Shown in pieces: positions 15,858-26,312 of a DNA stretch of 64,000 bases; positions within the stretch are counted from its first letter, which is position 1; the number at the start of each line of letters is the position of its first letter. The notes below the pieces were generated by a model. It ran no database searches and was not told the origin of the DNA. It saw only the letters and a program-made list of their open reading frames with translations. The stretch lies in the sequence record PV419677.1; one strand, given 5' to 3'. A program made the translations under genes and the position numbers. The DNA is from a phage.

Positions 15858-17267
15858 TTAAAAATCAAACATATCAAAAAGAGATGCTTTTTTCTCGTAA
15901 TCAACCTTAGCTGCTTCAGAGAACCCTGTTAACGGTTTGACAAAAGTCTTCTGGAACAGTGTGTTGTAGTCCATCCACTGCAAGACTTGGTCACGGATTT
16001 CAATCGGGAGTTCAATCCCAGATGGCCATGCAATCACGGTTTCACCAAACGGGTTGCCGACTTTAAGAGGAAGTACATACACCTTTTCCCCTTCCATGAT
16101 TTGTGGAACAGTCTTCAGACCTTTAGTTGCACGCATATATGCAAGCACACCTTTGATATGAGCCGGGCACTTAAATCCAGGGAAACCACCCTCATTATAT
16201 TTCTGAATGTTGTTAACCGATGATACACCTGCGATGGTCATGTAGTTAAGCTCATTAAATTCCTTATTGAATTCCTTGAAGTATGTCTGCAGAGATTCTT
16301 CACCTTCTTGCAGCATGCGACGGATACATTCTTTCAGAGCTTTCTGACATGCTTTTGGTGTGCTCGACTTTTGAGTTTCCAGACCCATGATTTTCAGTTT
16401 CGGAACAGCATATCGTGTGCCTTCCATATCGTACACATTCAGAGCATAACGCTTCTTCGCTGTCCAGAATCCACCAACACCTTTAGAACCAAGCGGAGGA
16501 CATGCAATCGCTTCACGGTCCATAAACATAAGGTGCTGTTTGTTGTTCATGTATTCAGCCAGTTCACGGAAAGCTTTATCGATTGCCGGTTCCAGACGGT
16601 CTTTCGCAAACTTGTCCATGAAGTCAACCAGGTGGTTTGTATCGCGGAATTTCGATTCGCCACCAACCTTTTTAATCAGGTTATCGCACTGGATATAAAT
16701 GGAGTCAGTATCGCCATAGAATACATATGTTTCACCACTTGTACCACAAACACTATCAAAATATTCGTTAACTTTACGCTCAATCCACTGCAATGCAAGT
16801 TGTCCGAAAGATGTAATCGCGGTTGCATTTCGCAGGTCAAAGTAACGGAACCAGATATTTCCCACAATTTTGTTCAGTTGAAGTCGTTAATTTCAACCCG
16901 GAATTATATCCAGCTGCATGTTGCCATGCAGAGCAGACTATATCATCATCTTTCGATGCCATGCGCTTCCAGCCACTTGGCTGTACTCCTTTCGGATAGT
17001 CGTTGCACGTTCCTATAATAGGCTTCGCTCAGGATTGTCTCATAGAGATGTCCCCTGAATTCACATGGTTTAAAGTGCGCCGGAATACTTGGTTAACGCA
17101 CCATAACAACTGTTGATAAGCAATTTGCGGTTAATCTGTGCAGTATTTGCCGCAATTTCTGCCATTTGCGAATTATGCAAATGACTTTCCAAATCCGCCC
17201 TTGATAATGTTTTTAAATATGCAATTTGCGAATCATCAAAATCTATATTATAATCAATATTCATCAT
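15858..17267 (-). CDS. 43: DNA polymerase C-terminal subunit gp43B, two exons: join(15858..16864, 17096..17267) if the intron is spliced
   Basis: exon 1 encodes motif B KLLINSCYGAL, exon 2 encodes GNIWFRY... and motif C YGDTDS; both in the same frame, separated by 231 nt with stops. Confidence 0.75.
16865..17095 (-). other. putative ORF-less group I intron in gene 43
   Basis: exon ends in U pairing with G of an internal GCGCAC guide; R-like CAACGACUAU and S-like GAUAUAGUC can form P7; GNRA hairpin CUGCAUG-GCAA-CAUGCAG; last nucleotide G. Confidence 0.6.
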
Positions 17268-18082
17268 TTATTCCTACAGTTATCAAAATGCCAACGTTTC
17301 ATGCCTGCTAATATACCTTCTTTTCCACAATGTGGACAAACTGCTTTAACCTCTTTTGCTTGTTTCCAATATTCCTTTCTGGCATCAGAAATAGCTTGAT
17401 TGTGTTCATCTGAATTTTTGTGTCCCAATCTGGTTTTAACGATATCTGGATTTTTAGCAACACGTTCTTTCATAAACTCAGATTTCGCTGCACGCATTTC
17501 TGGTGTCCAGGCATCGGAGCATTTTTGTTTGTGGTCGTCGGATATAGTTCCATTTTTCAGCACAGACTCATTGTTCTTATAATGTTCAATTAAACTTTGT
17601 GAACGTTTTTGACAAGTTTCTACCGAGTGTTTTGTTCCAGTATTTTTAATTGAGGCGATTTTAAAATTATCAATTGAAATTTTATTGTAATAATCTGGAT
17701 TTTGGGCCCGGGTATATTTGATACTATCGGAAACCTTTTTGGCAACTACTGGATTATGCATCGCATTTGGTAAATTTAAAGAATTGACATAATCCCACCC
17801 ACCTTTACCACCTGGGGTTAAATTATATGTGTCAGTACGTGTGATAAATTCATTATCAACTAATTTGGCTTCAAGTGCATATGCATCATCTTCGTTATCA
17901 AATTCAGCAATGATTGATTTGACCAGGTTATGCTTGCCATATTTTTCTTTCGCAGCTTTCACAATGGGACCCGAACCCAGATAATCATCCAACAAATTAT
18001 AAGATTCACATTTATGAACTCCAATGTAAATCTTATCGTTCACTAAATTTTTAATTTGATAAACAGTGTATACATTTTTCAT
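17264..18082 (-). CDS. GIY-YIG homing endonuclease (seg-like) inserted in gene 43
   Basis: 272 aa; N-terminal VYQIKNLVNDKIYIG, NLTPGGKGG; C-terminal zinc finger CPHCGKEGILAGMKRWHFDNC; own SD AAGGAG. Confidence 0.7.
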   Translation of the reverse strand: MKNVYTVYQIKNLVNDKIYIGVHKCESYNLLDDYLGSGPIVKAAKEKYGKHNLVKSIIAEFDNEDDAYALEAKLVDNEFITRTDTYNLTPGGKGGWDYVNSLNLPNAMHNPVVAKKVSDSIKYTRAQNPDYYNKISIDNFKIASIKNTGTKHSVETCQKRSQSLIEHYKNNESVLKNGTISDDHKQKCSDAWTPEMRAAKSEFMKERVAKNPDIVKTRLGHKNSDEHNQAISDARKEYWKQAKEVKAVCPHCGKEGILAGMKRWHFDNCRNK

Positions 18083-18104
18083 AATGTCTCCTTAATTTAA
18101 AAAT

Positions 18105-18138
18105 ATTTTAGCGCGCTTCCTTGCGCTTGTACAACTTA
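18105..18138 (-). promoter_or_regulatory. promoter-like element upstream of the gene-43 HEG
   Basis: TTGTACAA -35, 18-nt spacer, TAAAAT -10. Confidence 0.35.
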
Positions 18139-19659
18139 AAGATGGTTTAAAAGGTCTTTAATCAATTCACTATTACGTTGTGCCGCCAACATCTTTTTCT
18201 TTTCGGTTTTTCGTTGATTAAAAACTTTCTCAACTTCTGTCGGAATAATACCTGCAACATCTTTAAAATACATCATGCCATTTGGAGCACAACTAAATGT
18301 ATCAGATGGACGGTCAGCAGTTCCTGCGATGTATTCATACATCGGCGCAGGAGCAAATGAACCGGCAATCGTTTCTGGACTGATGTTAATCTGTCGGATG
18401 ATGCTCGGATACAGAGATGTCAAGTCACAGCTCATAACGTATTTGTATGCGTTCGGAATCGGTTCCTTAACAAATGCACCAGGGAATGATTGACGAACAT
18501 GCGATTTGGTTTCCGGAATGACTTTGTTTTGAGTCTTCAGGCTGTTAAAGATAATCGCATCCCAAGTTTTGATTGGGCTGAATACAGACTGAATCTGCAT
18601 TTTTGCGTAATAACCCATTGACTGGCTAAGGTTAATAAACTGGCGCTTACGGTCAATCTGTACAACACGATAAACATCGATGATGTTATAAGAAATATAC
18701 CGTTGGTGATTTGATTCACGCAGTTTAGAAATCGGACCATCATACGGGAGTTTACCAACACCCAGCTCAGATTCCGCAACATAATCCAACGAATAAGACG
18801 GTTGGTTTGTGAAGCTGAACTTTTTATACAGGTCCAGATAATCCAGAACAGAGATACCCAGAATCTGAATGATTTCTTGTTCTTCACCAAAGCCGTTGTT
18901 AATTACTTTAACTTTTGTACGACGATGTGGGCTCAGACGTTTTGCTGTGGCTTCACCAAATACATTTTTAAGGCGGTTGTAGATATACGGAATATCAAAC
19001 TTCTCGATGTTCCAACCAGTTAACATAACCGGAGTTTTCTCGTTCCAGAATACCAAATACTGCTGGAGCATTTCTTCTTCTGAATCGAAAGCCATATAAA
19101 CAATTTTTTCCAGGATTTCTTCAGGGACTTCATCGCCGCCATCTTCTTGCAGCTTGGCAGCAATATCAATAGACCATTGCTCCACAGTGGCGTATGGTGA
19201 GCTCAAAAGGTCAAAGACATAGAATTTATCGTCTACCGAATCATAGTGCGTCAGGGCATCAATAGGGTGACGTGCTTCAGACGGCTCAGGGAACCCATCC
19301 GGAGATGTCACCTCGATATCGAAGTTAGCCACACGGATTTTACTTGAATCGTATTTGATTTCGTGTGGATAACGGTCGGACAAGTATGCGAGTTTAAAGT
19401 CATCCATACCCATAGCTTCGAGACCCATGTCATTCATTCGCTTCATCCACTGGGATGCATCACGCATGGAATCGAATTCTTTTTTCACACAACCTTTATT
19501 ATAGATGTCTGTATACTTTGCAGCCTGGTCTTCGCGAGCATGCATAAACAAGCATGGAGCATAAGGGATTTCACGAACACGTTCATGACCATTCTTGTCA
19601 ATGTATCGTTCAAGCAGATTGTCACCGATTTGTTCGATAGTTAAATAAAATTCTTGCAT
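18136..19659 (-). CDS. 43: DNA polymerase N-terminal subunit gp43A (N-terminal and 3'-5' exonuclease region)
   Basis: 507 aa; N-terminus MQEFYLTIEQIGDNLLERYID matches remembered T4 gp43; ends in-frame with stop before the HEG. Confidence 0.9.
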   Translation of the reverse strand: MQEFYLTIEQIGDNLLERYIDKNGHERVREIPYAPCLFMHAREDQAAKYTDIYNKGCVKKEFDSMRDASQWMKRMNDMGLEAMGMDDFKLAYLSDRYPHEIKYDSSKIRVANFDIEVTSPDGFPEPSEARHPIDALTHYDSVDDKFYVFDLLSSPYATVEQWSIDIAAKLQEDGGDEVPEEILEKIVYMAFDSEEEMLQQYLVFWNEKTPVMLTGWNIEKFDIPYIYNRLKNVFGEATAKRLSPHRRTKVKVINNGFGEEQEIIQILGISVLDYLDLYKKFSFTNQPSYSLDYVAESELGVGKLPYDGPISKLRESNHQRYISYNIIDVYRVVQIDRKRQFINLSQSMGYYAKMQIQSVFSPIKTWDAIIFNSLKTQNKVIPETKSHVRQSFPGAFVKEPIPNAYKYVMSCDLTSLYPSIIRQINISPETIAGSFAPAPMYEYIAGTADRPSDTFSCAPNGMMYFKDVAGIIPTEVEKVFNQRKTEKKKMLAAQRNSELIKDLLNHL

Positions 19660-20910: not shown

Positions 20911-21878
20911 TTCATTTCCCCAGCCAGTTGAGCAAACAGATAAGTCAAGTGAACTTCGGTATTGGCCGCAATGCCATGGTACTGATTATTCTCACCTACA
21001 ATCTCATACATGCGGATGATACTTGCACCAGTCAGTTTGCCATACATTTCATCAGCCAGCTTTGCAATGAAGCTTGAATAATCATTTGCATGCTTAGGAG
21101 CCAGACCACGGAGAACTTTAAAGTTACGGTCCTTAAGGGCATCAATCACATCATCAATTGGCGTGCGATTGTTTGTCACGATACTCAGAATACCAGAATC
21201 GATAACACCCTTTGCAGAGTAACGGTCAAGCTCGTTAATTGTCTTACGCAGGTCCGGGAAGTTATGCTTAACCAGAGCAGCAACAACTTTCAGGTCTTCG
21301 ATTTCAACGCCTTCGTTTTTACATATCGCAACCGCACGATGAATCATCTCTTTCATCATAGTAGTCTGGTCAGCTGGAGTTGCTTCACCAAACTTAATTA
21401 CGCGACAACGAGACTGCAACGGAGTAATGATGCCATCGATATTGTTCGCGGTCATAATGATTGAACAGTTGCTCGAATAAGCTTCCATAAAGCTACGGAG
21501 GTGTCGTTGTGATTCTGCCAGACCTGCACGGTCGAACTCATCGATAACAATTACCTTACGGCGACCTTCGATTGATTTGGATGATGCAAAGCGAGTCAAT
21601 TCATTACGCACAAAGTCAATTCGGCAATCGGAGCCGTTAACAAACAGCATATCAGAATTCGTATCTGCGCACATAGCTTTTGCAACTGTTGTCTTACCAG
21701 TACCAGGGGAACTACTGACCAGAATCAAGTTAGGAATCAAACCTTTTTTAACAATCGCCTCTAATGTTTCTTTATCGTGAGCCGGGAGAATACACTCTGA
21801 TAATGTACCTGGGCGGTATTTTTGTTCCCACATGAAGTCGGATTCGTTGACTGTCAAACCGTTAATTACTGTTGCCAT
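20901..21878 (-). CDS. 44: clamp loader large subunit gp44 (AAA+)
   Basis: Walker A SPGTGKTT, DEFDR Walker B; start trimmed to an internal Met. Confidence 0.9.
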   Translation of the reverse strand: MATVINGLTVNESDFMWEQKYRPGTLSECILPAHDKETLEAIVKKGLIPNLILVSSSPGTGKTTVAKAMCADTNSDMLFVNGSDCRIDFVRNELTRFASSKSIEGRRKVIVIDEFDRAGLAESQRHLRSFMEAYSSNCSIIMTANNIDGIITPLQSRCRVIKFGEATPADQTTMMKEMIHRAVAICKNEGVEIEDLKVVAALVKHNFPDLRKTINELDRYSAKGVIDSGILSIVTNNRTPIDDVIDALKDRNFKVLRGLAPKHANDYSSFIAKLADEMYGKLTGASIIRMYEIVGENNQYHGIAANTEVHLTYLFAQLAGEMKWL

Positions 21879-22439
21879 TATTATTTTCCTCATTAAATTT
21901 TTTAACTATTTTATTCAATTCATTGGCTGAATAATTATACCCATAGTTCCGCAAAAGCGTACTGAACTTACCGCGCTTTGGTTTATCCAGCTCTATCCAA
22001 ATTTTTAACAGTTCATCATAGTGATTCCAAACTTCAGAACGCTGCCATAACGAACAATTCAATTTATGTGTTTTACTAAATGTTCGAGATACACCAGTAC
22101 GTGATTCAGACATTTGTCTACGAGTTTCTTCTGTATGAAAATCAACTCCACCATTACCGCCTGGATGAACATTAACACATTTATTTCCATATTCAATAAG
22201 ACCTTTGGCAACAATCAAAGATTCATAGTGTTTAGCTTCTTTGAAAGTTTTTACTTCTTTAATAATTTTTGTATCGAATAACCAAAGCCCAGGAATTAAA
22301 TCATTTTCTTTTCGACAAGCTTTAATAAACGTTCCACTGCCGTGATATTCTTCACCGGTCAAACGATGTCTACCAAAATAATGATAAACATCGTTTGATG
22401 CAGTATTTGTTATTTTTGTATGATAACAAATGTATGACA
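21862..22439 (-). CDS. GIY-YIG homing endonuclease (seg-like) between genes 45 and 44
   Basis: start at ATG 22437-22439 with GGAG SD; SYICY...VYHYFG, YHGSG and NVHPGGNGG motifs shared with the gene-43 HEG. Confidence 0.55.
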
Positions 22440-22471
22440 TTTTATTCTCCATGGGGCCGAAGCCCCATTTA

Positions 22472-23167
22472 TTAATCTTGGAATTCGTGGCTAGAGCCTT
22501 GTTCCATCGCAATCACATAGCTTGCTTGTGTGCCTTCAAACTTCGTAGCAAATTTATCATCTTTCGCCCAAAGCATAACACGGTAATCAGCCGGAATCAT
22601 TTTCATGTTCAGTTTGTTAATGATAAATTTAAACGCTGCATCGCCTTCGTAGTCGCCACATACCAGGGAATACAATGGACGTGCTAATTCTTTATCTTCG
22701 AGCTGGTTATAACCATGGATAACAATCTTACCGTCTTTGTTGGTGATTGCAAAGGTGTCCAGAGACAAACCACCAGCCACACGCAGAAGCTGCTGCAGGT
22801 CACTACCTTTCAGGTCGAAAATAACCTTAGCTACCGGGAAAGGAATCTTTTTAGCAGGGAACACGATAGTGCTCGGGTCTGCAGCTGGCCAGTGAATCGT
22901 TGAACGTTGGTCTTTGATAATGATGTTTGATGCGTCTTCAGCCAGAGATACTTCAGCTTGGTCAGTTACCAGGCCCAGGATACTTAAGAAGCCGTTCAGG
23001 TCATAAATCGCAGCTTCAAAGTCAATTGTATCATTGATTTCGGCTTCGCCATATGACGCTCCAGTTACGGAACGAGTCAGGATGGTATTACCTGGCTTAA
23101 GCATAATGCCAGAGTAAATGGAAGTAAAGTTTTTCAATACCGCGATTGTGTCCTTTGAGAATTTCAT
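22472..23167 (-). CDS. 45: sliding clamp gp45
   Basis: 231 aa; MKFSKDT...LKNF...GIMLK colinear with remembered T4 gp45. Confidence 0.9.
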   Translation of the reverse strand: MKFSKDTIAVLKNFTSIYSGIMLKPGNTILTRSVTGASYGEAEINDTIDFEAAIYDLNGFLSILGLVTDQAEVSLAEDASNIIIKDQRSTIHWPAADPSTIVFPAKKIPFPVAKVIFDLKGSDLQQLLRVAGGLSLDTFAITNKDGKIVIHGYNQLEDKELARPLYSLVCGDYEGDAAFKFIINKLNMKMIPADYRVMLWAKDDKFATKFEGTQASYVIAMEQGSSHEFQD

Positions 23168-23658: not shown

Positions 23659-23895
23659 TTCAATTAATCAAAGTATTCATATGCGAACCAGGCATTGTGT
23701 CTGTTCGCGATTATTTTAACATATTCTTCACCGAAAGCGTTTTGCAAGTCACGTTCAGTGACAAGGTGTTCATCTTTCGAAAAGGTATTAACTAACACAT
23801 ACCGTTTAATTTCAGGGACAGCCAGTAAATGCTGCCCGGTTAAAAAATTGCTCATAAATAATATTATCCGTTGCAGTATCAAACAAGGGTCTGAT

Positions 23896-24612
23896 ATGAA
23901 TTATAACATCATTTACCAAAAGCTTATTAGCAGAGCATTGAATCGCAAATTAACCACATACTCTGAAAGCCATCACATTATACCCCGTTGTATGGGTGGG
24001 GCTGACGACGCTTCAAATCTTGTTGATTTAACTCCCGAGGAACATTTCGTTTGCCATCAACTGTTGGTCAAAATGCATCCAAATAACGCTTCTTTGGTCT
24101 ATGCCGCGCGCATGATGACAGTTTCTGCACCAAATGCCGACAGAAGCAAAAATAAATTATTTGGATGGCTTCGTCGTAAAAACTTGGAAGCTCAACAAAA
24201 TAAAATTTTCTCCGATGAAACCAGAAAGAAAATGTCAGAATCCGCCAAATTAAAACCGAGAGTCGAATGTCCACACTGTGGAAAAACCGGTCTCGCTGGC
24301 AATATGAATCGTTGGCATTTTGATAACTGTTCCAAAGGTCCAAACAAGGTTGTTCATACTATTCCGGAAAAGCAAAAGCAAAAAATTTCAGTAGGTTTAA
24401 AACAAGCTAAACATGAAATTTTAAATTGTGAATTTTGCGGGCTTGAAGGTAAAAAGTGTGTTATATCCACTCACCGACAATTCTGCAAATCCAATCCAAA
24501 CCGGAAGAAAAAGGTGGACCCCAAAATTCAGTGTCCACACTGTAATGTAGTCAGTACGCCAGCTAATATGAAACGTTGGCATTTTGATAACTGCAAAATG
24601 AAGCCTCAATAA
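23896..24612 (+). CDS. HNH homing endonuclease with three C-terminal zinc-finger repeats
   Basis: start trimmed to ATG 23896; HHIIPRCMGGADDASNLVDLTPEEHFVCH; three copies of a CPHCGK...RWHFDNC-type module; only large plus-strand gene in the region. Confidence 0.7.
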   Translation: MNYNIIYQKLISRALNRKLTTYSESHHIIPRCMGGADDASNLVDLTPEEHFVCHQLLVKMHPNNASLVYAARMMTVSAPNADRSKNKLFGWLRRKNLEAQQNKIFSDETRKKMSESAKLKPRVECPHCGKTGLAGNMNRWHFDNCSKGPNKVVHTIPEKQKQKISVGLKQAKHEILNCEFCGLEGKKCVISTHRQFCKSNPNRKKKVDPKIQCPHCNVVSTPANMKRWHFDNCKMKPQ

Positions 24613-24617
24613 GAGGC

Positions 24618-26312
24618 TCATTCCAGAACAGTAAATCGACCGACTTTTTTCATTTGAAGATGCTGTCCATATGCTTCTGGGTCATGGTCTCGGTGACTGA
24701 TGATAAACACGTTTTGACCTTCCAATTTATTGATAATTGCCTGGATAGCTTTGATGCCTTCGGCGTCAGTGGCTGAATCCATGACCTCATCCAGAATCAA
24801 CGTACTAATTTGCACACCAGATACTTTCGCAGCAATATCGCGCCATGTAAACAGCAATGCAATATCTATACGAGCTTTTTCACCCTGGCTAAATGATGCA
24901 TAGCTAAAGTCTTCACGTCCACGAGATTTAATCGTTTCGTTGAACTCTTCATCTAACGTAAAGCTATAATCAGCTTCCATAACTTTAAGATAAGCGTTTA
25001 TCTGCTTATTAAAGATAGGAATATATTTCTTAATAATCGCGCCCTTAATACCAGAATCTTTCAACATATCCGTTAGGATACCACGTTGATATTTTTCCAT
25101 CACAAGGTCGGATTTCTGTTTGACTATTTTATCAAGCTGGTCTTGGAGCATTTTAATGTCTGCTGCATGGTCAATGAATTCCGACTTGGCTTGCTCGATT
25201 AATGCTTTAACCTTTTTAGCTTTTTCGACAGTCTGGACTAAGGTTTGTTTCTTAGTTTGAATGTCTTGAGCTATTGTACGCTGGTTTTGTCTTGCCTTGG
25301 TATACGCATCAAATTGCTCCTGAACAACATTCTGGCGAGCTTTATGCTTATCAGCCGAAGCATTACATTCTTCAATCTTTGACTCAATCCTGGCGACAAT
25401 AGGGTCTCCTGGATGCAACTGACTGGCACAGGTCTGACAACAACCACCTTTCTCGTACAGACCAACAACCTTTCGATAATCGTCAATCTTCGACTTAATC
25501 AGGAATGATTCTTGCTTTAACTTCGTGAGTTCATGCTCAGGGTCTTCTCCCAAGATTATCTCGGTCAGTCTTGTCGTTGCTTCTTCGATAGTTGTCTTGA
25601 TTCCACGTGCTTCTGTGGCAAGTTCATCATACATCGTTTGCAGTCGCAACAGATTATCGCCTGACAATTTTCTTTGACGGTCTTCGTTGTCCTGATAGAT
25701 TTTAATCTGTTGAACAATACCATCATGCTGCACATCCATCACCTGGATTTGGCTATTGACTTCGCGGATAAGAGATTTGTTCAACTTATCCATATCGGCC
25801 AGTACAGAAACCTCTAAAAGGTCTTCGACAAGCTTTCTTCTGGCAGGAGTGGATAGGCCCATAAAAGGGGTATATCCAGCTGTGCCGAGTACGACAATTT
25901 GTTTGAAACTGGCGTATGACATTCCGATAAGCTGTTCAAATTCCGCTTGGAAGTCTTTACTGCTGGCAGATTCATCAAGACGTTTACCGCCACAAGAGAT
26001 TTCAAAAACATTGGGTTTTTGCCCGCGTTTGATATAGTATTCTTTTCCATCATATTCCATCCACAATTCAACGAGCATATCTTTTTTGTTGCTCGAGTTA
26101 ATCAGCTGACCTTTCTTTACATCACGGAAAGGCTTACCGAACATAGCAAAGGTAACCGCTTCAAGGAACGTAGATTTACCTGCGCCATTCTTGCCGGTGA
26201 CCAGAGTTTTCTGAACTTTATCCAGTTCAACAGTAATCGGTTGAGCACCAACCGACATAATATTTTTATAGATAACTTTCTTAAGCTTAAAAGTCTTCAT
26301 CGTAATAAGCAT
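24618..26312 (-). CDS. 46: recombination nuclease subunit gp46 (SbcC/Rad50-like ATPase)
   Basis: 564 aa; Walker A GKNGAGKST, long coiled-coil, C-terminal signature and Walker B. Confidence 0.9.
   Translation of the reverse strand: MLITMKTFKLKKVIYKNIMSVGAQPITVELDKVQKTLVTGKNGAGKSTFLEAVTFAMFGKPFRDVKKGQLINSSNKKDMLVELWMEYDGKEYYIKRGQKPNVFEISCGGKRLDESASSKDFQAEFEQLIGMSYASFKQIVVLGTAGYTPFMGLSTPARRKLVEDLLEVSVLADMDKLNKSLIREVNSQIQVMDVQHDGIVQQIKIYQDNEDRQRKLSGDNLLRLQTMYDELATEARGIKTTIEEATTRLTEIILGEDPEHELTKLKQESFLIKSKIDDYRKVVGLYEKGGCCQTCASQLHPGDPIVARIESKIEECNASADKHKARQNVVQEQFDAYTKARQNQRTIAQDIQTKKQTLVQTVEKAKKVKALIEQAKSEFIDHAADIKMLQDQLDKIVKQKSDLVMEKYQRGILTDMLKDSGIKGAIIKKYIPIFNKQINAYLKVMEADYSFTLDEEFNETIKSRGREDFSYASFSQGEKARIDIALLFTWRDIAAKVSGVQISTLILDEVMDSATDAEGIKAIQAIINKLEGQNVFIISHRDHDPEAYGQHLQMKKVGRFTVLE

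Follow-up and report, generated by a model that had tools for sequence, protein, structure and literature searches.

What kind of gene stands on the opposite strand between genes 45.2 and 46 of this phage, and why is a zinc finger of its product also found in an endonuclease of a different family encoded in the same DNA? These questions concern positions 23896–24612 of the window, i.e., of the whole stretch of 64,000 nucleotides (64 kb) of sequence record PV419677.1 that was analysed. In our opinion, this is very probably a free-standing homing endonuclease gene, whose product combines a MobE-type HNH domain, NUMOD3-like helices and three fingers of the I-TevIII type, homing being proposed from the homologues.

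Locus and catalytic domain

The source phage is a T4-like coliphage of the genus Gaprivervirus, and the part of the window between positions 23000 and 25500 has 96–97% identity with phages MN01, vB_YenM_P8 and DK-13. The coordinates of the features considered are collected in Table 1. The HNH gene forms a convergent pair with gene 46 and a divergent pair with gene 45.2; its start codon agrees with those of the annotated orthologues and with the N-terminus of MobE, and the orthologues in other phages bear the annotation 'homing endonuclease'. The first-pass annotation had placed the left neighbour at the position of rpbA, but its Pfam match (Gp45_2, E 1e-23) identifies it as gene 45.2, and rpbA lies one gene further to the left. 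The description of the HNH gene in the same annotation as the only sizeable one on the plus strand is reasonable, the other plus-strand open reading frames of at least 110 aa either overlapping minus-strand genes or having no Pfam or PHROG match.

Table 1. Features of the HNH gene, its flanks and the GIY-YIG gene (positions in the window)
Feature	Positions	Strand	Basis
Gene 45.2 (left flank)	23664..23854	-	Pfam Gp45_2, E 1e-23
Segment of 773 bp with the probable homing endonuclease gene (HEG), replacing the 45-bp 45.2/46 spacer of HEG-less relatives	23847..24619	.	blastn against SP18; junctions
HNH homing endonuclease gene (probable), free-standing	23896..24612	+	ORF call, 238 aa, ATG start
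MobE-type HNH (beta-beta-alpha-Me) catalytic domain, aa 1–76	23896..24123	+	Identity with MobE; AlphaFold2 model
NUMOD3-like helix before finger 1, aa 107–119	24214..24252	+	AlphaFold2 helix; weak Pfam NUMOD3 match, E 0.23
ZF1, canonical, CPHCGKTGLAGNMNRWHFDNC (CX2CX12HX3C)	24268..24330	+	Regular expression; AlphaFold2 model
ZF2, divergent, CEFCGLEGKKCVISTHRQFC (CX2CX11HX3C)	24427..24486	+	Regular expression; counterpart of I-TevIII finger 1
ZF3, canonical C-terminal half, CPHCNVVSTPANMKRWHFDNC	24532..24594	+	Regular expression; counterpart of I-TevIII finger 2
Inverted repeat AGCCTC-AATAA-GAGGCT, spanning both convergent stop codons	24602..24618	.	Sequence and RNAfold
Gene 46, Rad50/SbcC-like recombination nuclease subunit (right flank)	24618..26312	-	Pfam SMC_N and AAA_23; annotations of relatives
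HEG-linked divergent tract, last ~65 codons of gene 46, Walker B to H-loop	24620..24813	-	Fixed differences
GIY-YIG (Seg-like) homing endonuclease in gene 43, with NUMOD3-like repeats and one finger	17264..18082	-	Pfam, PHROG
C-terminal finger of the GIY-YIG protein, canonical, CPHCGKEGILAGMKRWHFDNC	17276..17338	-	Regular expression; blastp

A scan of the surroundings of the HNH gene gave no clear promoter. The sole sigma-70-like site (23840–23867) is weak, a late-promoter-like CATAAATA at 23853–23860 agrees in 7 of 8 positions, and exact TATAAATA is absent from the scanned region. Nor does the 5' region of the gene contain a convincing hairpin that would hide the ribosome-binding site (-6 to -7 kcal/mol). 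At the other end of the gene, the inverted repeat may possibly form a transcript-end hairpin, as its predicted folding suggests.

The whole protein of 238 aa matches PHROG 655 ('homing endonuclease', E 8e-67). Its N-terminus aligns with MobE of phage RB3 with 46% identity over 106 aa (E 3e-25), and MobE of T4 matches the protein with 44% identity over 120 aa (E 8e-31); the Pfam HNH score, 16.8 bits, lies under the gathering cut-off of 21.4. The residues of the HNH motif are intact, namely H26/H27 (23971–23976), N41 (24016–24018) and H50 (24043–24045), and they parallel the catalytic H26/H27/N39/H48 of I-TevIII. The AlphaFold2 model, obtained with an alignment of 121 sequences, has a mean pLDDT of 93.5 and consists of an HNH beta-beta-alpha unit, a helical linker and three fingers, each formed by a beta-hairpin plus a helix and each preceded by a further helix; strands 24–27 and 42–45 and helix 47–60 of the HNH unit were modelled with pLDDT of about 98. 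The call of an HNH endonuclease in the first-pass annotation is borne out by the PHROG match, the identity with MobE and the intact motif, and on these grounds the product may be assigned to the MobE subgroup of HNH endonucleases, with nuclease activity predicted.

The likeness to MobE (T4 and RB3), whose N-terminal domain is 44–46% identical to that of the HNH protein, extends to the arrangement of the genes. MobE nicks nrdB of the HEG-less phage T2 at a polymorphic site near mobE and co-converts the flanks (Wilson & Edgell 2009, PMC2790892). Both genes are free-standing and lie between conserved genes, a neighbouring essential gene being the target (presumably gene 46 in the present case), and flank co-conversion appears to be common to them. 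Moreover, the T4 open reading frame nrdB.1, located downstream of mobE, encodes one canonical finger and is collinear with the HNH protein. However, the C-terminal region of RB3 MobE has no fingers, the mobE locus is nrdA/nrdB rather than 45.2/46, and mobE runs in the same direction as its neighbours and has no promoter of its own, whereas the HNH gene is placed on the opposite strand.

Zinc fingers and their distribution among nuclease families

When the 64-kb window was scanned in all six frames with the regular expression CX2C-x(9-15)-HX3C, exactly four finger motifs were obtained, i.e., ZF1, ZF2 and ZF3 of the HNH protein and the C-terminal finger of the GIY-YIG protein. Shuffled DNA or shuffled proteins of the open reading frames contained on average about 0.2 such motifs, and chance occurrence of the four was ruled out by these controls. 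The three fingers reported earlier in the C-terminal half of the HNH protein were found again as three CX2C-x(11-12)-HX3C motifs. In the AlphaFold2 model, ZF1 has the beta-beta-alpha topology (strands 122–124 and 131–133, helix 134–144), ZF2 comprises strands 175–177 and 184–186 and helix 187–196, and the helix of ZF3 includes residues 222–232. The spacer consists of 12 residues in ZF1, ZF3 and the GIY-YIG finger and of 11 residues in ZF2, which is just outside the published range of 12–13.

The agreement of individual fingers with the consensus quoted in the first-pass annotation, of the type CPHCGK...RWHFDNC, is uneven. ZF1 and the GIY-YIG finger fit it in full. ZF3 has CPHC and NMKRWHFDNC, but departs from the consensus in the remainder, and in ZF2 the ligands are preserved, but the spacer is shorter by one residue and RWHFDN is missing. 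Both ZF1 and ZF3 fit the simpler formula CPHC-x12-HFDNC. A tandem triplication had also been proposed; the three fingers do exist, but the triplication is not recent, because Tequatrovirus orthologues with 56% identity retain the same layout and because ZF2 and ZF3 match the first and second fingers of I-TevIII.

The proposed sharing of the finger with the C-terminus of the GIY-YIG protein encoded at 17264–18082 (CPHCGKEGILAGMKRWHFDNC) was confirmed by blastp. The segment aa 100–145 of the HNH protein, comprising a helix and a finger, aligns with the GIY-YIG protein with 48% identity over 46 aa (E 4e-11). With Pfam NUMOD3, matches short of the cut-off were obtained for the HNH protein (E 0.23) and the GIY-YIG protein (E 0.034).

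I-TevIII, the HNH endonuclease of the nrdB group I intron of phage RB3 (Robbins et al. 2007, PMC1865063), resembles the HNH protein in its general plan, with the HNH domain at the N-terminus and tandem fingers in the DNA-binding domain at the C-terminus. Its C-terminus aligns with the HNH protein finger to finger, with 35% identity over 93 aa (blastp, E 4e-11), ZF2 being paired with its finger 1 (CDFCGHIGKGPGFYLKHNDRCKLNPNR) and ZF3 with its finger 2 (CPYCDKKDLSPSTYKRWHGDNC), and tblastn matched the loci of I-TevIII in RB3, T4 and numerous T-even phages. The fingers of I-TevIII were defined as CX2CX12-13HX3C, and about two zinc ions per protein were found in a zinc assay and lost in Cys-to-Ala mutants (PMC1865063). 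Disruption of either finger lowers DNA binding and cleavage. The finger fragment 194C alone does not shift DNA, the minimal binding domain beginning at residue 166 (PMC1865063), and the fingers are therefore necessary, while their sufficiency is not implied. The enzyme dimerises via its C-terminal region, which leads to a double-strand break (PMC1865063).

By ligand pattern and homology, the fingers of the 238-aa protein can be referred to the I-TevIII type, binding of zinc and DNA being predicted. The differences between the two enzymes are also considerable. I-TevIII is encoded in an intron, targets nrdB and has two fingers, whereas the gene of the HNH protein is free-standing beside gene 46 and encodes three; the HNH domain and long helical linker of I-TevIII have no detectable similarity to those of the HNH protein, and dimerisation and a double-strand break have been demonstrated for I-TevIII alone. 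The HNH protein appears to work like MobE or I-TevIII as a hybrid of the two, with a MobE-type catalytic domain and an I-TevIII-type binding domain.

Classical C2H2 arrays, such as that of CTCF, have the same predicted topology and CX2C-x12-H spacing as the phage finger, but the latter differs in its last ligand, which is Cys (HX3C), and in the distinct CPHCGK...RWHFDNC signature. Sequence and fold searches of solved structures with the HNH protein gave nothing significant (E >= 0.011), the faint resemblances, including weak Foldseek matches to C2H2 arrays, being to C2H2 and TRAF finger arrays and to HNH domains; one C2H2-like repeat protein was picked up by the finger profile. Searches for the finger itself in Pfam, NCBIfam and PDB sequences yielded only weak generic zinc-ribbon or RING/FCS matches. 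Pfam NUMOD modules (NUMOD1/3/4) are likewise small DNA-binding units arranged as beads on a string and occur in both GIY-YIG and HNH enzymes; the finger, however, stands outside these families, and neither Pfam nor NCBIfam contains a model for it.

A search with a profile of the three fingers revealed at least 1,707 proteins with 1–5 fingers each, a number to be read as a lower bound, since all the 120 matches listed were of no more than 237 aa and full-length RB3 I-TevIII was absent among them. The top 121 of these at least 1,707 proteins contained the Pfam domains HNH (24), HNH_5 (8), GIY-YIG (16), SegE_GIY-YIG (11) and NUMOD3 (31), and no finger-specific Pfam family. When the three canonical fingers of the window served as the query of an exhaustive profile search, 7,402 clusters (formed at 50% identity) scored E <= 1e-3, and their proteins had 1–8 fingers each; among the best 126 new matches, 69 were GIY-YIG and 38 HNH proteins. 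In a sample of 120 IMG/VR loci, chosen on RWHFDNC-coding DNA only, the finger belonged to GIY-YIG proteins in 71 cases and to MobE-like HNH proteins in 17, mostly as a single C-terminal finger. As a rule, the carriers are GIY-YIG enzymes, supplemented by two HNH subtypes. In T4, the finger is confined to nrdB.1 and the defective I-TevIII, being absent from SegA–G, MobA–D, I-TevI and I-TevII. In a full-text search (motif strings; homing endonuclease together with C2HC/CCHC), no description of the finger in GIY-YIG enzymes came up, perhaps because the T4 Seg proteins are devoid of it.

The spacer is of 12 residues in 527 of 644 fingers of the family, of 13 in 88 and of 11 in 20. The consensus of the 527 fingers is C-P-H-C-G-K-x-G-x-x-x-N-M-K-R-W-H-F-D-N-C, positions 7 and 9–11 being nearly free to vary; in the AlphaFold2 model, the variable positions are situated in the second strand and at the N-terminus of the helix. 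In a nearest-neighbour comparison, the fingers of GIY-YIG proteins do not separate from those of HNH proteins, but are intermixed with them. It may be concluded that the sharing of the finger between nuclease families is real, general and old, because its carriers span both GIY-YIG and HNH enzymes and their fingers are intermixed. [quoted passage not shown] The finger of I-TevIII, characterised in a single enzyme, is among the DNA-binding modules met most often in homing endonucleases of phages. Neither a database model nor a solved structure exists for it, and a curated profile would improve the annotation of phages.

Probable mobility and the divergent end of gene 46

The HNH gene is carried by 6 of the 63 related phage records, and the junctions of the 773-bp segment, seen when the carriers are compared with SP18, are sharp. 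When the flanks of six phages with the gene (HEG+) were compared with those of five phages without it (HEG-), 40 fixed differences were found in gene 46, all of them at positions 24626–24813 and none from 24814 to 26300. Within this tract the HEG+ and HEG- sequences have about 75% identity, and just beyond it 97%. The left flank contains a single HEG-linked difference, at 23844, and the first three codons of gene 45.2 differ between HEG+ and HEG- phages.

Three-finger orthologues adjoin gene 46 also in Tequatrovirus and in T4-like phages of Klebsiella, Enterobacter and Cronobacter. The orthologue at the same locus of RB68 (Tequatrovirus) has three fingers and is 56% identical to the HNH protein. 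The pattern recurs independently when RB68 (HEG+) is compared with T4 (HEG-): the final ~260 bp of gene 46 are 72–84% identical, and the sequence beyond them is 100% identical. The six orthologues of Gaprivervirus are all intact and keep the catalytic residues and zinc ligands; synonymous changes among them exceed nonsynonymous ones (e.g., 16:5), and the nonsynonymous differences are all in the DNA-binding half.

With its presence/absence polymorphism and the probable co-conversion of its flank, the gene at 23896–24612 appears to behave as a free-standing homing endonuclease gene. The tract at 24620–24813 is a candidate for the co-conversion tract and target region; it marks the end of recombination, not the site of cutting. 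The target of the endonuclease probably lies in the 3' end of gene 46. The HNH gene would explain the recombination boundary inside gene 46.

Proposed homing, alternative explanations and the gene 43 cassette

By analogy with MobE and I-TevIII, the following course of events, including the target and the kind of cut, may be suggested. In a mixed infection, the array of fingers and helices would fix the enzyme to the gene 46 of HEG-less relatives, at a long and asymmetric site within the 3' end of that gene. The tethered HNH domain would then nick the HEG-less DNA, as MobE does, or, if the protein is dimeric like I-TevIII, produce a double-strand break. Recombinational repair from the HEG+ genome would copy the 773-bp gene segment together with about 190 bp of the donor end of gene 46, and this diverged end would presumably shield the carriers from self-cleavage. 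The finger common to the HNH protein and the GIY-YIG enzyme of gene 43 would represent a widespread portable module, spread by old and repeated shuffling of domains.

The DNA-binding role of the fingers in this scheme is opposed by another explanation, according to which they are structural elements (spacers, distance determinants or dimerisation scaffolds) and specificity resides in the intervening helices. The I-TevI finger, a small zinc module (Cys4, linker) within the DNA-binding region of a T-even homing endonuclease, is a distance determinant that makes no DNA contact of its own and is dispensable for DNA binding (PMC1865063; PMC2988022), although it has another set of ligands and no sequence similarity to the fingers of the HNH protein. 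The dimer interface of I-TevIII, residues 194–241, lies beside or overlaps its fingers, the 194C fragment did not shift DNA, and most finger positions are strongly conserved over thousands of proteins with different targets. Nevertheless, mutation of either I-TevIII finger weakened binding and cleavage, the variable finger positions are those where classical fingers touch bases, and the range from one to eight fingers per protein suits additive units of DNA contact, so that we consider a purely structural role rather unlikely. It is a speculative idea, also of low probability in our opinion, that the fingers form a large family of modular DNA-reading units, in which variable positions 7 and 9–12 would specify contacts additively, possibly on heavily modified phage DNA; if true, the finger would be a compact natural counterpart of the C2H2 array, recombinable to retarget nucleases. 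A quite different question is whether the HNH gene is still an active mobile element. Homing endonuclease genes often decay once fixed, as the defective I-TevIII and MobA of T4 illustrate, and the concentration of nonsynonymous differences in the DNA-binding half and the promoter scan without a clear result would suit a gene that is decaying or has been domesticated for exclusion of competing phages or for regulation. Against this, the reading frame is intact in all six carriers, it is under purifying selection with catalytic and zinc-binding residues kept, and occurrence in only about 10% of relatives suits an element that is still spreading or cycling; marker exclusion, in turn, would be the same mechanism and not a separate alternative. 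Loss of mobility is therefore judged to be distinctly improbable, and an active homing endonuclease gene is preferred.

The presence of one finger in two genes of this genome could also be attributed to recent recombination or gene conversion between the HNH and GIY-YIG genes. The RWHFDN codons of the three canonical fingers in the window are identical (CGT TGG CAT TTT GAT AAC), this string was met in only about 3 of the 120 RWHFDNC-coding IMG/VR sites, and the ends of ZF1 and ZF3 coincide in 28 of 30 nucleotides. However, Mosigvirus G2285 carries an orthologue of the GIY-YIG protein (62.5% identity) that already has the finger, with 20 of 21 aa the same as in the window and one codon different, and the finger therefore came with the GIY-YIG gene. 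Besides, ZF1 and the GIY-YIG finger agree in only 15 of 21 residues, each having closer relatives elsewhere (17–20 of 21); the N-terminal halves of ZF1, ZF3 and the GIY-YIG finger differ in DNA; and the RWHFDN codons are mostly those preferred in this genome. A recent exchange within this genome was rejected on the basis of the G2285 orthologue and the nearest-neighbour analysis, and we regard it as extremely unlikely in comparison with old shuffling of a portable module. The identity of the RWHFDN codons in the three canonical fingers is a minor loose end.

The GIY-YIG protein itself is recognised by Pfam GIY-YIG with 23.0 bits (cut-off 22.6) and by PHROG 314 with E 3e-47. Its closest T4 relative is SegD (35.6% identity over aa 5–190), although all the T4 proteins SegA–G differ from it in having no finger. 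The gene is absent from all other Gapriverviruses in the collection. It splits gene 43 into 43A (18136–19659) and 43B, and this break-up is unique among the collected Gapriverviruses. 43B contains a group I intron without an open reading frame (Rfam RF00028, 81 bits), which is located about 170 nt downstream of the GIY-YIG gene, within the motif KLLINSxYGAL|GN. The same cassette of endonuclease plus intron is present in Mosigvirus G2285, and its layout in gene 43 is reminiscent of collaborative or trans homing. Between genes 44 and 45 lies a third endonuclease gene, which is Seg-like and has no finger, and a stretch of 8 kb contains three homing endonuclease genes, the HNH gene among them.

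The zinc finger beyond the window phage

A canonical copy of the I-TevIII-type Cys2-His-Cys finger, CPHCGKKVNKGNALRWHYDKC, was found in the 83-residue T4 product nrdB.1, annotated as a 'hypothetical protein', whose gene lies directly downstream of mobE in a different reading frame. Since the HNH protein of the window is collinear with mobE and nrdB.1 taken together, this T4 pair looks, from the sequences, like a frameshifted HNH-plus-finger gene. The paper on MobE (PMC2790892) mentions neither nrdB.1 nor zinc.

Using the profile of the three canonical window fingers, 38 matched stretches were found in a metagenomic protein of 3179 amino acids (P0153), the repeat unit of which has the C2H2-like form CPLCG...NMRRHFNQVH. 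This match suggests that the phage finger and classical zinc fingers are related.

Variation and shared codons of the HNH gene

All amino-acid differences among the six orthologues (23896-24612 of the window and its counterparts in L001, L003 and L008-L010) are located at residue 78 or later, in the linker and finger half of the protein, and the HNH domain (residues 1-76) is unchanged. The HNH gene and gene 46 converge, and a 6-bp inverted repeat, AGCCTC-AATAA-GAGGCT, extends across both of their stop codons; it could form a transcript-end hairpin restricting antisense read-through.

The RWHFDN motif is encoded by the identical codons CGT TGG CAT TTT GAT AAC in all three canonical fingers of the window, and this exact string occurs at about 3 of 120 RWHFDNC-coding sites in an IMG/VR sample. 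By our own post hoc estimate, based on the codon usage of this genome, the chance probability of such three-way identity is about 1e-3. Gene conversion, codon preference or chance could each account for it.

Fragmented gene 43 and neighbouring endonuclease genes

The DNA polymerase gene 43 is in pieces in the window phage and uninterrupted in all other Gapriverviruses of the collection. The 43B start codon, ATG at 17267, overlaps the stop codon of the GIY-YIG endonuclease gene, and the group I intron matches Rfam RF00028 over 16914-17127 (81 bits, E 6e-20). Compared with relatives, the exon piece flanked by the intron and the endonuclease gene shows only 84% identity; outside this piece the figure is 96-98%. 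Mosigvirus G2285 also has this cassette of endonuclease and intron, which is a candidate for collaborative or trans homing.

A further Seg-like gene, devoid of a zinc finger, is situated between genes 44 and 45, where relatives have a mere spacer of about 56 bp.

Features of the window and of T4
Feature	Coordinates	Strand	Remark
RWHFDN codons	24310-24330, 24574-24594, 17276-17296		canonical window fingers
Inverted repeat	24602-24618		
Seg-like gene	21862-22452	-	third homing endonuclease gene; PHROG 314, E 3e-16; weak NUMOD3
Gene 43	15858-19659	-	
43A	18136-19659	-	gene 43 piece
GIY-YIG gene	17264-18082	-	separates 43A from 43B
43B exon 1	end ~17094	-	...KLLINSCYGAL
Group I intron	~16863-17093	-	ORF-less; after 43B exon 1
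43B exon 2	start ~16862	-	GNIWFRY...
T4 nrdB.1	within AF158101.6 139716-140416 (L158 39716-40416)		canonical finger

In phage TH15 (MT446392.1; L003 1653-2553), about 900 bp of additional DNA, absent from the window and the other relatives, lies between gene 45 and rpbA, and may be another mobile endonuclease gene.
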